Shown here piece by piece: positions 2,030 through 7,445 of a stretch of DNA of 64,000 bases. The first letter of the stretch is position 1. Each line of letters starts with the position of its first letter. This DNA comes from Planctomycetota bacterium (GTDB taxonomy: Bacteria; Planctomycetota; SZUA-567; H5-PLA8). The notes beneath the pieces were generated by a model that saw nothing but the letters and a program-made list of their open reading frames with translations, had not been told where the DNA came from and made no database searches. A program made the translations under genes and the position numbers. The stretch spans positions 1 to 64,000 of the forward strand of contig JBBRPR010000036.1 of the NCBI GenBank assembly GCA_038227875.1, read 5' to 3'.

Positions 2030-2887
2030 TTATGGATTCAATGGCTTGCGATGGGCTATGTAGCTGGGATTGAGGGAAAGTCTCCCAGCACTCGATTTTG
2101 TTTTTCTTCGATAGGAGAGGACGTCAGCCGGGGCACCGGCAATCGCCAGTTTGGTGCGCAGGGATGAGAGCAGCATGCGCTCCGCACTAGTGGCTTCCGT
2201 CAAGCGTATCAATGGCTTGCCTTTCAGATCGTAAACGCTCGTCAGGAGGCGTTCTTCATCCGGCTCCAGAAACAGCTTCGCACCATTAAAATAATACGCT
2301 TCCTCATACCAAATGAGCTGCATCTTCGGCGCAATAACTGTTCGCAATAACTTTTCCCGTCTCCGGGCAAAGTCTGGATCCGTGAAATGAATATCAACGA
2401 ACTCTCTGCACTCTGCAATCGTCTGCAGCGCTTTGTCCAGGTTCTCACTAAAATAACAACATATGAACGCAACTTCTTCCATCCTCTCCAGCGTTGTAAT
2501 CACGATCTGGAGGTTATCTTTCCAGCACTTCTGCCGCGCATAAGCGCTCGGCGGGAGGCCTCGATTCACCGCGTTTTCCATTAACTTAAATATCGCCGGC
2601 AGCGCCCTCAATCCGACATCCGGTCGAAGCAGGACCGGTTGCTGATACCGGGGTTCAAGCAAATAATGACTGCGTAGAAAGGAAAAGGTCCGATTGGCAT
2701 CGTCTTCATAGCTCGCTTTCATGTTCTTGGTTAATGCAAGGATTTCTGTTCTCGCTTTCTTAGCCGCCCCTTTTTTCACTTCTCCCAGAGTTAGCTTTGC
2801 AAGTCCCTCCGAGATTTCTCGCAGCGATTCCAGATACTTTCGATACGTGTGGAGGGTCTCGATCAGTTCATTCTGCGTGGGATCCAT
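2030..2887 (-). CDS. Hypothetical protein with probable C-terminal OmpR/PhoB-type winged-helix DNA-binding domain
   Basis: The C-terminus YFNGAKLFLEPDEERLLTSVYDLKGKPL...ERMLLSSLRTKL...SYRRK..GRLSL follows the Trans_reg_C pattern. AT-rich codon use; no receiver-domain motifs. Confidence 0.5.
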   Translation of the reverse strand: MDPTQNELIETLHTYRKYLESLREISEGLAKLTLGEVKKGAAKKARTEILALTKNMKASYEDDANRTFSFLRSHYLLEPRYQQPVLLRPDVGLRALPAIFKLMENAVNRGLPPSAYARQKCWKDNLQIVITTLERMEEVAFICCYFSENLDKALQTIAECREFVDIHFTDPDFARRREKLLRTVIAPKMQLIWYEEAYYFNGAKLFLEPDEERLLTSVYDLKGKPLIRLTEATSAERMLLSSLRTKLAIAGAPADVLSYRRKTKSSAGRLSLNPSYIAHRKPLNP

Positions 2888-2961
2888 GAAGGGTATCCTG
2901 TCGTAAGATTGTCCGCCGCGCCGTGGACCGTCGCCGTCGACCGCCCGTCACCCAAAAGTGC

Positions 2962-5040
2962 CTATCGCCAGCGAAACGGCCAGCGTTGTCCGGTGTCTTC
3001 GGAAGCGATGGAAATATAGTGCCGGTCGGCGATGGCTGGGGAATTGCCCATCATGCGCGCAATCTCCACCCCGCTGTACCCGCACATCCCCAGTATGGTG
3101 CCGAAGGTATGCCGCCACTCGGAAGGGCCAAATGTCCAATAGGCCCCGGCCCCGTATTGCTCTTTCGGTGCCCTCTGCCCGGCCTGCTCCAGGGACTCGG
3201 ATTGATCCGGTTGGGTTGTTTTGCAGTTGGGTTCGTTGCCATTGAGCTCCACAGCTGTATCTAAAGCCCCACCGGCTGCGGCAGCACGCCCAGAGGTCCC
3301 GGTTGACTGAGCCGCCCTCGCGGCGCGCCGCATCTTTTCCAGTTGCGGTACGTCGCATTGCAGGTCCTGGATCATGCCCATAAACATCCGGTCCTTGATC
3401 GCCCACGCGGGCAACCGGCGGTAGAGATGTTCAACGAACGGTTTTAAAGCCGGTTGGCGAGTGGAGCAGAGGAGCTTCAACCAGTCACTCGTGATGGATT
3501 CAGGATGGCTGTGTGCATACCGATCGAACAATTTCTCCGCGTCCTCATCGCCCGTTCGGGCCAGGATGACGAGTACCTTGGCGGTGGACTGAGGATCGGC
3601 GTCTTGGGCCGCGTGCAGAAGACTTGCGTTCAACGCAACAACCTGCGCTCGCGCGGGGTTCTCCTTGAATAAAGTGTCGATGGCATGGGTTCTAATGTGC
3701 GCATCCTGCTGTTCCAGTGCGGCGGCGGTCTGGACGATGTTCCAGCTGTCGAGGAACGCACTGCTGCCGGACCAGAGGCCCATTAAGGTCTTTTTGCGGA
3801 CGACGGAATGATCCAGCAGCGAAGGAAACAGCCAGGGATAGTTGCTCTCGCGCGTGTTCAAGTAGTCTTTCAGAATCGGCAGCAGCGTCGTGCGTTCGAT
3901 CGGCACGTTGCGCTCGCGGCCGGTCTTGGTGCCGACTCTCTTCGGTCCGGAAGTCCGGGCGGTGATGCGGAGATATCCCTCCTTCAGGTACACGTCGTCG
4001 ACCTTCAACCATTGCTGTTCGGCCCAACGGGGGCCGGCGAACACCGCCACGGCAACCCAGGCGCGCCAGTAAGGCCACGGCCGCAACCCTTCCAGCAACG
4101 CGTTCAATTCGTCCAGCCGCCGGACGGCGAGGATGTGCTCCGGAGCGCGCGAACCGCCGGCGAGTGTCCCGCAGCGGTCCATTGGGTTTTCTGACAGGTC
4201 GTATTCACGCACTGCCCACTTCCAGAAGATGCGCACGTACGCTTTGAGGCGGGCCCGGGTGATCATCGAGACGTCCTCATCGCTATTGGCGCCGCCCTTA
4301 TAATTCAGCAGCCATTCCTCAATCTCACGCGCGCGGACCCTGGCGACATTCTGCGCCGGACCGAGGGTCTGCACAAACGACTGCAAAGCACTGTGGACGT
4401 GACGGATCGTGGACGGCGCATGATCCACGGCATAGTTTTTCTCGAAGCGCAGTTGCGCTTCACCCAGCGTGGCCTTTACGTGGTGGTTGTGGGCGCGCTG
4501 GAAGCGTTCCAGTTGTGAGACCAGCGAAGCCTTTTCTCGCTCCAACTTGGCGGCGCGCTGTTCTGCGTCAACCCTCAGCCGACGCTCGTCGGCCAGTGCG
4601 GGGGAACTCTCTTCGATCTTGACGACATGCTTCAGAAATCCAGCCGCTGCGAGCGCGTCGATGGCCTCTTTTAATTTTGGCGTGAGCGTGTGGGTCGGGT
4701 CGGTGCGTTGGGGTTTTCGTCCCAGGAAGATCGAGAGCGAGCGCTCATCGAACGTGATGAACGCCGGATCTTCAGGCGCGAGTTTCCAGAGATCGGGTGT
4801 GTTGGCCAGCCGCTCGAGATCCCACGCGATCTTGCGTGCTTCCAACTCGTCGCGCGTGCCCAGTGAGCGGCTGACGCGCTGACCCGACAGGGGGTGCGGA
4901 AAGTTGACGACAAACCCCGGACGTCCGGTGGCCTGATAGGCGGAGATGTGTTGCACCGCGCGCGGCGTGGCGGTGCCGGAACGGGGGTTGGCGCGGGGCA
5001 AATTTCGGCTCGTTTTCACCGCTTTCAGGGTATCACCCAC
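2962..5040 (-). CDS. int: Tyrosine recombinase/integrase (692 aa) with large internal insertion
   Basis: N-terminal arm-binding-like RVSRSLGTRD; SAM-like region ending ENPM; Box I FAGPRWAEQQWLKVDDV; TKTGRERNVPI; WLFPS; Box II PSEWRHTFGT...IARMMGNS...RHY; adjacent to tRNA. Confidence 0.92.
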   Translation of the reverse strand: MGDTLKAVKTSRNLPRANPRSGTATPRAVQHISAYQATGRPGFVVNFPHPLSGQRVSRSLGTRDELEARKIAWDLERLANTPDLWKLAPEDPAFITFDERSLSIFLGRKPQRTDPTHTLTPKLKEAIDALAAAGFLKHVVKIEESSPALADERRLRVDAEQRAAKLEREKASLVSQLERFQRAHNHHVKATLGEAQLRFEKNYAVDHAPSTIRHVHSALQSFVQTLGPAQNVARVRAREIEEWLLNYKGGANSDEDVSMITRARLKAYVRIFWKWAVREYDLSENPMDRCGTLAGGSRAPEHILAVRRLDELNALLEGLRPWPYWRAWVAVAVFAGPRWAEQQWLKVDDVYLKEGYLRITARTSGPKRVGTKTGRERNVPIERTTLLPILKDYLNTRESNYPWLFPSLLDHSVVRKKTLMGLWSGSSAFLDSWNIVQTAAALEQQDAHIRTHAIDTLFKENPARAQVVALNASLLHAAQDADPQSTAKVLVILARTGDEDAEKLFDRYAHSHPESITSDWLKLLCSTRQPALKPFVEHLYRRLPAWAIKDRMFMGMIQDLQCDVPQLEKMRRAARAAQSTGTSGRAAAAGGALDTAVELNGNEPNCKTTQPDQSESLEQAGQRAPKEQYGAGAYWTFGPSEWRHTFGTILGMCGYSGVEIARMMGNSPAIADRHYISIASEDTGQRWPFRWR

Positions 5041-5093
5041 ACAACGCTACACAACAAAATTCACACAACAAAAAAGTCGCGAAAAAACACAAC
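5039..5093 (+). repeat. Four direct ACACAAC repeats, candidate integrase arm-type sites
   Basis: ACACAAC at 5039-5045, 5049-5055, 5063-5069 and 5087-5093, between the integrase start and the tRNA 3' end. Confidence 0.6.
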
Positions 5094-5164
5094 GCCGGCG
5101 TTTTGGGCGCCTGTTTTCATAGGAGAAAGGAGGGAAGTGGGTGAGTGGAAAGGAGTAGTGAAAA

Positions 5165-5237
5165 TGCGCCCTGGAGGACTCGAACCTCCGACCCGGTGAT
5201 TAAGAGTCACCTGCTCTACCAACTGAGCTAAGGACGC
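5165..5237 (-). tRNA. tRNA-Lys (anticodon CTT), CCA not encoded
   Basis: Reverse complement GCGTCCTTAGCTCAGTTGGTAGAGCAGGTGACTCTTAATCACCGGGTCGGAGGTTCGAGTCCTCCAGGGCGCA: 7-bp acceptor stem, D arm, GGTGA/TCACC anticodon stem with CTT, and GGTTCGAGTCC T arm. Confidence 0.97.
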
Positions 5238-5537: not shown

Positions 5538-7445
5538 ATGTTGCGTGCAGCGTTCTTCTGCTCCCTTTTTGCGGTTCTTTTGAGCGGCTCCGGGCTGGTC
5601 CAGGCGGCTACCACGTCGCCGACCAAGACGCCGGGTGTCGCCGATCCGCCGCCGAAAGCCCCGGAAGGCTTCACGCAGATCATTACACCCTCGTTCGTGG
5701 TTGAAACCGACGTCTCGCAGGCCTTCACGCAAAAAGTCGCCGGGATGGTTGCGAAAGCGGAAAGCAAGTTCAACGTCCTGTTCAAAATCAACGCCGATTA
5801 CCTCAACGGCGTCTCCAAGCAGTTCATCGATAACAAGTACCACATTCCCGGCACCTTCATGAGCTGGCGGCGCGCGTTTGTCGAAGTCCGCGTCTACAAA
5901 ACCGAAGAGCGCTTTGCCAACGAGTGGTTCGACCTGACCGGCGTCACCGACAAGCTGCAACGGCTGAAGCAGGGCATGCCCGGCGCCTACACCGGCCCGC
6001 GTTACGAGAAGGATTCAGAAGGCAAGAATGTTGGCAAGCCGATCCTGATCATCCGTTCGTTCCTGGCCAACCGCGACGACGACGAACTGGAACGCACGAT
6101 CCTGCACGAAATGGGACATCTCTACATGCAGGCATTCCTGCTGGAATACTTCGGCGCGCCGCCGAAAGGCCAGGAAGGTCAGAAGCGCGGCACGCCCGCG
6201 TGGCTGGGCGAAGGCACGGCCCAGTTGTTCGAAAACCGCTGGTCCAACGCCGCCAGCGCGCAGAAAGCGCGGCTGCGTCAGGAAGGCATGATCTACGAAG
6301 CGGTGAAACTCGGCGACAGCTATCCGTTCGAAGAATTCACCAACATCACCAACGCGCACAATCTTGCGGCCGTCGCCGGCGATCCACTAAAGGCAACCTT
6401 GAACTACGCGCAGTCGGCGTCGGTCATGGACTTCATGGTGAATGTGAACGGAGCGATGTTCTTCAGCTTCCTTGAAAATCTGCGCGCCATGAATTTCGAA
6501 AAGAATCTGGCCAATCCCGACAAGAACCACGTCGGCGAACTGTTCTCGTTTCAGAACGAATGTTTCAAGAAGGCCTTCAACAACGATCTGTCGCAGGTGG
6601 AGCAGTACTGGAAGGACAACGTCAAGAAGACGATGGAAGCGCAGTTGAAGAAGTCGCCGGAGCTCTATTACTGGATCGGCGAATATTATCTGCGGCGCGG
6701 CAAAGACAAGGCCAACGATCTGGCGCGCGCCGAGGAGAATTTCAATCTGGCGATGACCCAGGCGCCGAACAAGGGTGAAGGCTACCTCGGCATGGGCCGC
6801 ATGGCGATCCGCAAGCACGACGACGAGAACGCGCTGAAGGAACTCACCAAGGCCGTCGAGCTCATGCCGAAAGACGAAGACGCGTGGTACTACCTCGGCA
6901 TCGCGCAGGTCAACGTCGGCAAGCTCAAGGAAGCTGTCGAAAGTCTGACGAAGTCGGTCAAGATCTACCAGCTCAATCACGTCGCGCTGGCGGGGCTGGG
7001 CCTGGCGCAGTTCCATTCCGGTGAATACGAGAAGTCGATGGAGAATTACGAAAAGGCGTACCAGGCGTTCCGGAATCCGTACTACCTCTTTCAGAAGGGG
7101 CACGCCGCGTTCTTTGGCAAGAAGTACCGCGAAGCGCAGCAGGGCTTCGCGGCGTTCTGTGATTGGTTCCCGCAGGACGCGCAGGGGCAGATGTGGTATG
7201 GCCTGGCCGCGTGGCGCCTCAACGACAAGGATTTTGCGATCAAGAAGCTGGAAGAAGCCAGCAAGCTCAATCCGCAGGATCCGACGATCATGGAAGCGCT
7301 GGCTCGCGCGAAGAAAGGCGAGACGCTGACCTTCGCACTGGAGAAACCGGAAGTCGCCGAAGCCAAACCCGATCCGAAGAACACCGACCCGAAAGCCCCG
7401 GCGGAGGCCAAGAAGAAGCCCGACATCCGCATCGAGGACGAATAG
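5538..7445 (+). CDS. Secreted gluzincin-like (peptidase MA/DUF1570-like) protein with C-terminal TPR array
   Basis: Signal peptide; ILHEMGHLY (HEXXH) plus PAWLGEGTAQLFE (third ligand Glu) and YAQS; about 6 TPRs (e.g. EDAWYYLGIAQVNVGKLKEAVESLTKSVKIYQ); GGAGG RBS. Confidence 0.85.
   Translation: MLRAAFFCSLFAVLLSGSGLVQAATTSPTKTPGVADPPPKAPEGFTQIITPSFVVETDVSQAFTQKVAGMVAKAESKFNVLFKINADYLNGVSKQFIDNKYHIPGTFMSWRRAFVEVRVYKTEERFANEWFDLTGVTDKLQRLKQGMPGAYTGPRYEKDSEGKNVGKPILIIRSFLANRDDDELERTILHEMGHLYMQAFLLEYFGAPPKGQEGQKRGTPAWLGEGTAQLFENRWSNAASAQKARLRQEGMIYEAVKLGDSYPFEEFTNITNAHNLAAVAGDPLKATLNYAQSASVMDFMVNVNGAMFFSFLENLRAMNFEKNLANPDKNHVGELFSFQNECFKKAFNNDLSQVEQYWKDNVKKTMEAQLKKSPELYYWIGEYYLRRGKDKANDLARAEENFNLAMTQAPNKGEGYLGMGRMAIRKHDDENALKELTKAVELMPKDEDAWYYLGIAQVNVGKLKEAVESLTKSVKIYQLNHVALAGLGLAQFHSGEYEKSMENYEKAYQAFRNPYYLFQKGHAAFFGKKYREAQQGFAAFCDWFPQDAQGQMWYGLAAWRLNDKDFAIKKLEEASKLNPQDPTIMEALARAKKGETLTFALEKPEVAEAKPDPKNTDPKAPAEAKKKPDIRIEDE

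Follow-up and report, generated by a model that had tools for sequence, protein, structure and literature searches.

A tRNA-Lys-associated tyrosine integrase with an in-frame HEAT-like gene fragment in its catalytic domain in a planctomycete genome

The DNA considered here, called the window throughout, is the 64,000-nt stretch C36:1-64000 of the genome G000 (NCBI GenBank assembly GCA_038227875.1, contig JBBRPR010000036.1), a draft metagenome-assembled genome (MAG) of a Planctomycetota bacterium that comprises 9.3 Mb in 176 contigs and is 88% complete. Near the start of the contig lies the gene of a tyrosine integrase (P0001), with a tRNA-Lys gene 125 nt upstream of the integrase start on the same strand (Table 1). 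The catalytic domain of this integrase is interrupted by an in-frame insert of about 184 residues, the larger part of which was captured from the interior of a HEAT-like protein gene; an earlier note on the same DNA, drawn from the sequence alone, had called attention to this insert.

Table 1. Features of the integrase locus (window positions) and catalytic positions of P0001 (residue numbers). ORF, open reading frame; AF2, AlphaFold; pLDDT, predicted local distance difference test; VIA, source of the structure matches.
Feature	Position	Strand	Details
Tyrosine integrase ORF (P0001)	2962..5040	-	692 aa + stop, GTG start; Pfam and PHROGs matches
N-terminal domain, two strands + helix, arm-binding-like	4711..4953	-	residues ~30-110; AF2 secondary structure, pLDDT ~90
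Core-binding (SAM-like) domain	4156..4476	-	residues ~189-295; VIA structure matches
Catalytic domain, N-terminal part, with Arg-I R338 and Lys K372	3721..4128	-	residues ~305-440; Pfam, XerA 4a8e profile alignment
Insert, donor-matching part, all-helical, HEAT-like	3280..3720	-	residues 441-587; 50% identical to P0019 131-277
Insert tail, low-complexity, predicted disordered	3169..3279	-	residues ~588-624; pLDDT <50 at 581-631
Catalytic domain, C-terminal part, with S640 (His-I position), R643 (Arg-II), N666 (His-II position) and Y675 (nucleophile)	2965..3168	-	residues ~625-692
tRNA-Lys (anticodon CTT); 3' half = left attachment-site repeat	5165..5237	-	ARAGORN
attL-like stretch: tRNA 3' half + downstream spacer resembling C82:380-518	5070..5211	.	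blastn + MAFFT
Arg-I	R338		GPRWAE
Lys	K372		TKTG
His-I position	S640		SEWR
Arg-II	R643		SEWR
His-II position	N666		MGN
Tyr nucleophile	Y675		RHY

The affiliation of P0001 is given by profile searches, in which the Pfam family PF00589 scores 29.3 bits, above its curated cut-off of 27.1, and the PHROGs integrase family phrog_1 is matched at 1.7e-25; a single-sequence search against the PDB returned no match. The PF00589 match is confined to residues 326-411 (profile positions 25-103 of 172), a partial coverage that results from the splitting of the catalytic domain by the insert. In VIA structure comparisons, the core-binding domain, whose PF02899 match is weak, aligns with 3nrw (Z 12.4; root-mean-square deviation, rmsd, 2.4 over 102 residues) and 2oxo (Z 12.1, rmsd 2.0 over 92), and the N-terminal part of the catalytic domain (model residues 305-442) aligns with the C-terminal domain of XerD (5dcf; Z 8.8, rmsd 2.9 over 116 residues). 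Further support for the core-binding and catalytic fold is provided by a Foldseek match to XerA (5hxy, 1.6e-6) and a VIA match to lambda Int (1z1b, Z 13.5), residues 633-692 lying outside the aligned ranges. The N-terminal domain, for which we infer an arm-binding role, gives a weak match to DUF6538 (E 0.0043). With regard to the start codon, the database copy of the protein (P0002) begins 13 codons downstream of the GTG at 5040 (window 5002-5040); given that the N-terminus of the homologue P0017, MADTLKA, resembles the VGDTLKA of P0001, the longer GTG start appears to be favoured.

The borders of the insert were fixed by an alignment (A1) of P0001 with 15 homologues of 381-562 aa, which were retrieved from a collection of 5.8e9 clusters and which, the protein's own record P0002 apart, share 31-60% BLASTP identity with it. 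All homologues proceed from ...W..VA.AA through a linker of ~9 residues to GEFW.YGP.EWRH, whereas P0001 holds an extra block of ~184-192 residues between ...NIVQTAA, which ends at residue 440 (window 3721), and ...KEQYGAGAYW, which runs from 626 onward. By linker length, the insert covers residues 441 to ~624 (window ~3169-3720; ~552 nt, ~184 codons, in frame), which bears out the earlier note's estimate of a ~190-aa in-frame insert at 3150-3720. None of the 15 homologues contains it, nor do the 5 further full-length family genes and one fragment in G000; among 40 related genomes, the 18 that hold the integrase family have the matches to its N- and C-terminal portions adjoining in each case, with no such block between. 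At the same position, P0011, P0012 and P0013 carry ~8-35 extra residues, and the site thus varies in length, on a small scale, within the family. A search of the insert borders for target-site duplications and terminal inverted repeats yielded only short, chance-level repeats.

This distribution (0 of 15 homologues, 0 paralogues) makes it extremely improbable that the block is a standard, previously described segment of the integrase subfamily, and the catalytic-domain insertions described in the available part of PMC8138268 are short (integron helix, Tn916-type beta hairpin, lambda strands). An intein or another self-splicing element is no better a candidate. The absence of intein terminal residues, previously pointed out, is confirmed: the first insert residue is Ala441, the residue following the insert is not Cys, Ser or Thr, and His-Asn-Cys/Ser/Thr is missing from the C-terminal border (...RAPKEQ...). 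In Pfam, neither an intein nor a Hint family is matched at E <=10, and the insert resembles a cellular HEAT-like protein instead.

A separate case of insertion is seen in P0003, the closest homologue, which carries an unrelated, proline-rich, low-complexity insert of ~58 residues (A1 columns ~432-489). It is located in the hairpin before the catalytic Lys, between SGP and K.VGTKTG, which is the place of the beta-insertion of Tn916-type integrases; in the two closest members of the family, the catalytic domain is therefore interrupted by lineage-specific inserts that differ from one another.

The origin of the insert in P0001 was traced by searching with the insert alone, as had been suggested beforehand. 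Among 1.84e9 representative proteins, HMMER matched only P0002 and P0019 (E 2.3e-38), the latter a non-integrase relative far beyond chance: an uncharacterised protein of 416 aa from a public metagenome assembly. In BLASTP, insert residues 3-146 align with P0019 133-276 with 72 of 144 residues identical, 69% similar and 0 gaps, and the correspondence extends, gap-free and at 50% identity, over the first 147 insert residues and P0019 131-277. The HEAT_2 profile scores below threshold in P0019 (19.9 vs 27.7 bits), the language-model neighbours of which are bacterial HEAT_2 clusters (0.90); the insert alone gives no HEAT_2 (PF13646) match, its Pfam matches being to helical-domain families only and far under threshold (ERAP1_C only, E 0.0045, 16.9 vs 38.2 bits). 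The AlphaFold model of P0019 (mean pLDDT 64.5) consists of an alpha-solenoid (1-273), a disordered linker (269-296) and a beta-rich domain (~298-400), and its Foldseek matches include HEAT, armadillo and alphaRep chains, mostly at E ~1e-3 (7q1e alphaRep, rmsd 5.8 over 163 columns). The solenoid is modelled unbroken over residue 131, with a pLDDT of 77-88.

The full-length AF2 model of P0001 (mean pLDDT 73.7; predicted template modelling score, pTM, 0.33) is confident in the N-terminal and core-binding domains as well as in the first catalytic part; the insert helices reach a pLDDT of 60-77 and coincide in position with those of the separate P0019 model, and residues 581-631 are disordered. Both the insert and P0019 are modelled as all-helical, as expected of an alpha-solenoid, at moderate model confidence and with shallow alignments behind the insert in both models. 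The description of the insert as a helical, HEAT-like segment followed by a disordered tail is thus upheld. Because the solenoid of P0019 is continuous at residue 131 and the segment is missing from every other integrase, the transfer ran from donor to integrase. The insert is a captured, in-frame internal fragment of a HEAT-like protein gene, more precisely the C-terminal half of the solenoid up to the inter-domain linker, followed by a disordered tail; of the origins initially considered, a captured domain or a tolerated gene-fragment insertion, both draw support from the match to P0019 131-277 and from the absence of the segment in all other integrases.

The donor family, i.e., the family of P0019, is extremely rare. 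Searched against 5.8e9 clusters, P0019 returns itself alone, and among 20 genomes of the order just one 25%-identity match (E 1e-3) was obtained, in a 1388-aa frame of G001. Pattern searches gave 595 matches in JGI metagenome contigs, of which 0 were confirmed, and 260 matches in contigs of GTDB genomes, among them one weak match in an unrelated MAG (32% over 59 residues). Other frames around the insert were searched for what might be left of the remaining donor gene, with nothing significant found (best E 0.2). No relative was detected for the tail (the last 37-45 insert residues), which has no match to P0019 in any frame and which is without codon-position GC bias (0.69/0.63/0.65).

A profile of A1 aligned with archaeal XerA (4a8e, E 6e-10) fixes the catalytic positions. 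The insert is located at the C-terminus of the helix from which the chain loops over to the HxxR helix. In the Cre chains among the VIA matches, Cre 274 pairs with model residues 442-443, and the insert ends ~15 residues ahead of S640. The Cre residue numbers for the HxxR motif are presumably His289 and Arg292. The insert accordingly lies within a few residues of the 278/279 site that has been used for the engineering of Cre (PMC11631766).

The catalytic motifs quoted in the earlier note, GPRWAE, TKTG, SEWR, MGN and RHY, are all present as read. Aligned to the XerA motifs, R338, K372, R643 and Y675 are shared by all 16 sequences of A1 without exception, as are W642 and H644; N666 is Asn in at least 90% of the 16 sequences, and position 640 is variable. 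The histidines of the RKHRH pentad (the second of which may be Trp) are thus not retained, their positions being occupied by S640 and N666. According to the accessible part of PMC8138268, the pentad is otherwise strictly preserved, with a few other accepted subgroups likewise departing from it. This departure does not exclude membership of the superfamily, and catalysis may differ in detail. Non-canonical catalytic residues, as claimed at the outset, are therefore real in P0001 but not specific to it, being a trait of the whole family; the implied link of SEWR and MGN to the insert is wrong, as insert-free relatives carry the same motifs. Throughout the family, an invariant His644 directly follows Arg-II (W-R-H; window 3040-3120), both pentad histidines being replaced. 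The integrase family is multi-copy in many of the 40 related genomes, and 5 of the 6 full-length copies in G000 stand beside a tRNA gene; because of this multiplicity and tRNA association, the family is probably active with its altered catalytic site.

In the integrase gene itself, no decay is visible at the level of sequence. Of 73 highly conserved columns, P0001 differs from its family at 5 (6.8%, against 1.5 to 25.6% in the other 15 sequences), none of these departures lies downstream of the insert, and P0001 and P0003 share the same last 29 residues. The GC content at third codon positions (GC3) amounts to 0.672 for the insert, compared with 0.761 for the N-terminal part. Windows of 192 codons across G000 have a mean GC3 of 0.729 (sd 0.098), and 31% of the 1636 windows are at or below 0.672; the claim of a more AT-rich codon use in the insert thus holds weakly, but the value is ordinary for the genome and the composition does not mark the insert as foreign.

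An artificial fusion produced by a chimeric assembly or mis-join, which could be suspected in a draft MAG of this many contigs, is very improbable. A second assembler bridges both junctions, in that a 5079-nt Logan contig of run X1 spans positions 2700-4400 with 0 differences, no joints and an even depth of 12.1; as X1 is probably the source sample, these data are not independent, and being contigs, not raw reads, they exclude an assembler artefact better than a read-level problem. Both junctions are moreover in frame, and the donor occurs nowhere else in the assembly. No joints of an insert-free allele were found among the X1 contigs, which drop rare variants, and a soil run (X2) contributed only uninformative pieces of 36-151 nt at 85-92% identity; no RNA data set containing the sequence turned up.

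The surroundings of the gene resemble those of an integrated island. The 3' 47 nt of the tRNA, together with its flank, have a 52-nt copy of 94% identity at G000 C82:380-431, which is followed by ~90 nt like the spacer between tRNA and integrase and then by putA, with no whole tRNA there; a tRNA neighbour and a direct repeat of the 3' part of the tRNA are hence both found. We read the C82 copy as a putative right attachment site; the element would then begin at the tRNA, continue past the start of contig C36 and have its other end on C82. The attR-like copy (C82:340-560, corresponding to window 5040-5211) may be a long mimic of the downstream flank of the tRNA within the element, or a remnant of an older related element. 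The three genes after the integrase (285, 277 and 343 aa) have no paralogues in the genome or in related loci and no family hits, a weak helix-turn-helix being seen in the 343-aa protein only. On the chromosomal side of the tRNA, the translation of a 635-aa ORF (5538-7445, forward strand) reads as signal-peptide-like at its start and as TPR-like in its C-terminal half. Elsewhere in G000, on C59 and C11, two paralogous integrase genes point away from the tRNA (Leu-CAA and Thr-CGT, respectively) and are not downstream of its 3' end, an arrangement unusual for tRNA-targeting islands.

On balance, the insert is probably a tolerated passenger without an evolved role, the integrase being still active or merely weakened. 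The piece would have arrived via a single illegitimate-recombination or repair event in which both reading frames were kept by chance, and its location at a surface junction may be why it is tolerated. Since the solenoid is rod-shaped, the chain would have to come back from its distal end to the point of insertion, a distance that the disordered tail of ~40-50 residues can bridge, and the ORF is presumably kept open by the loss of the catalytic Tyr675 that any frameshift would entail. In favour of such tolerance, the same site is length-variable in P0011-P0013, and Cre-type enzymes accept insertions at 278/279 according to the part of PMC11631766 at hand.

Several observations weigh against a tolerated passenger, some of which would sooner be expected of an inactivating hit. 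In 49 of 50 VIA rows the aligned range stops at or before model residue 452, and the model therefore does not show the Tyr-bearing C-terminal segment docked as usual; in the structural check of the catalytic core that had been called for, the N-terminal catalytic part aligns to XerD, and the alignments do not extend to residues 633-692. In the excerpted work on Cre, enzymes with a folded domain at 278/279 were inactive on normal targets unless the domain bound DNA nearby (PMC11631766), and a 184-residue insert could thus well inactivate the enzyme. The insert is, furthermore, a singleton known from one genome, itself metagenome-assembled, as is expected of a recent event unseen by selection. 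Taken in this direction, the captured fragment would have killed or crippled the integrase, the island would be fixed at tRNA-Lys, and the gene would be a young pseudogene in which stops have yet to accrue. Such a course of events is possible but rather unlikely, in that the 692-codon frame is intact, the family-typical catalytic positions are kept and no conserved column departs after the insert, although a recent event would be indistinguishable in these respects.

Two further points tell against the passenger interpretation. The donor itself is not found in G000, an 88% complete genome, where tblastn and blastn searches with the insert and P0019 match the integrase only (next best E >=0.36). 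In addition, the 147 residues have stayed free of indels at 50% identity, as selection for the fold of the insert would also explain, whereas a pure passenger would have no need of it. A maintained fold would be in keeping with a functional gain, in which the half-solenoid serves as a protein-binding or autoinhibitory module and renders recombination partner-dependent, much as in recombinases engineered to be gated by an insertion. Solenoids of the HEAT-like kind typically act as scaffolds for protein binding, and the site coincides with that of the Cre-type insertion that made enzymes conditional in the portion of PMC11631766 available. A gain of this kind is nonetheless unlikely: the insert is confined to a single lineage, what was captured is half a domain and not a whole one, and no partner candidate is apparent, the island neighbours being without family hits or paralogues. 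The gating through a partner protein that the earlier note proposed has its one parallel in the engineered enzymes, at nearly the same site. By analogy with them, and given that this is the one junction at which inserted domains are known to make Cre-type enzymes conditional, a natural domain-insertion switch could be envisaged, wherein the half-solenoid would hold the integrase inactive until a partner, or its own docking, frees the HxxR helix and the Tyr segment; we regard this as distinctly doubtful.

As a singleton in one MAG, the insert is a rare natural oddity and, for now, a curiosity. Nevertheless, the case documents the raw event, i.e., the capture of an internal gene fragment, in frame, at a junction that engineers independently chose as permissive and switch-creating in Cre-type enzymes. 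If the enzyme is active, the junction would be a natural permissive site for the construction of conditional integrases, and if it is dead, the locus would be a clean example of an island becoming fixed in place. Should a switch prove to be involved, excision of a mobile element would be tied to a cellular signal by a novel route, and the locus would offer a snapshot of the first acquisition of regulatory domains.

Compared with known systems, P0001 is closest to the tRNA-targeting integrases of islands and prophages (PF00589; lambda Int, XerA/XerD, Tn1549 Int), with which it shares the fold, the succession of N-terminal, core-binding and catalytic domains, the retained R, K, R and Y, and the location beside a tRNA whose 3' half is repeated. 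The ~184-residue foreign segment sets P0001 alone apart from them, whereas S640 and N666 in place of the histidines are found family-wide. With respect to the donor, P0019 stands alone and has its solenoid complete (1-273), with a linker and a beta-rich domain following towards the C-terminus; of this plan, the integrase holds the equivalent of 131-277 only. The insertion of integron integrases is presumably located, likewise, between the Lys and HxxR motifs. Natural catalytic-domain insertions include the extra helix of integron integrases, the beta hairpin of IntTn916 and IntBPP-1 and the extra strands of lambda Int (PMC8138268, in part). Like the insert of P0001, these extend loops of the catalytic fold, but they are short, subgroup-wide and concerned with DNA handling, whereas that of P0001 comprises ~184 residues, is a singleton and originates from an unrelated gene. 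Large foreign domains in the catalytic fold are not among the variations listed in the available part of PMC8138268, and literature searches turned up no natural case. The nearest parallel is man-made. In the portion of PMC11631766 at hand, pentapeptide scanning revealed 278/279 as a shared insertion-tolerant site of Cre-type enzymes, and Zif268 inserted there yielded a dormant enzyme that is switched on when the zinc finger binds a nearby target site. The engineered insertion lies within a few residues of where helix J ends and ~10 residues before the HxxR histidine position; the Cre-Zif268 fusion, however, employs a DNA-binding domain with designed Gly-Ser linkers, whereas the integrase described here carries a natural fragment of a protein-type solenoid.

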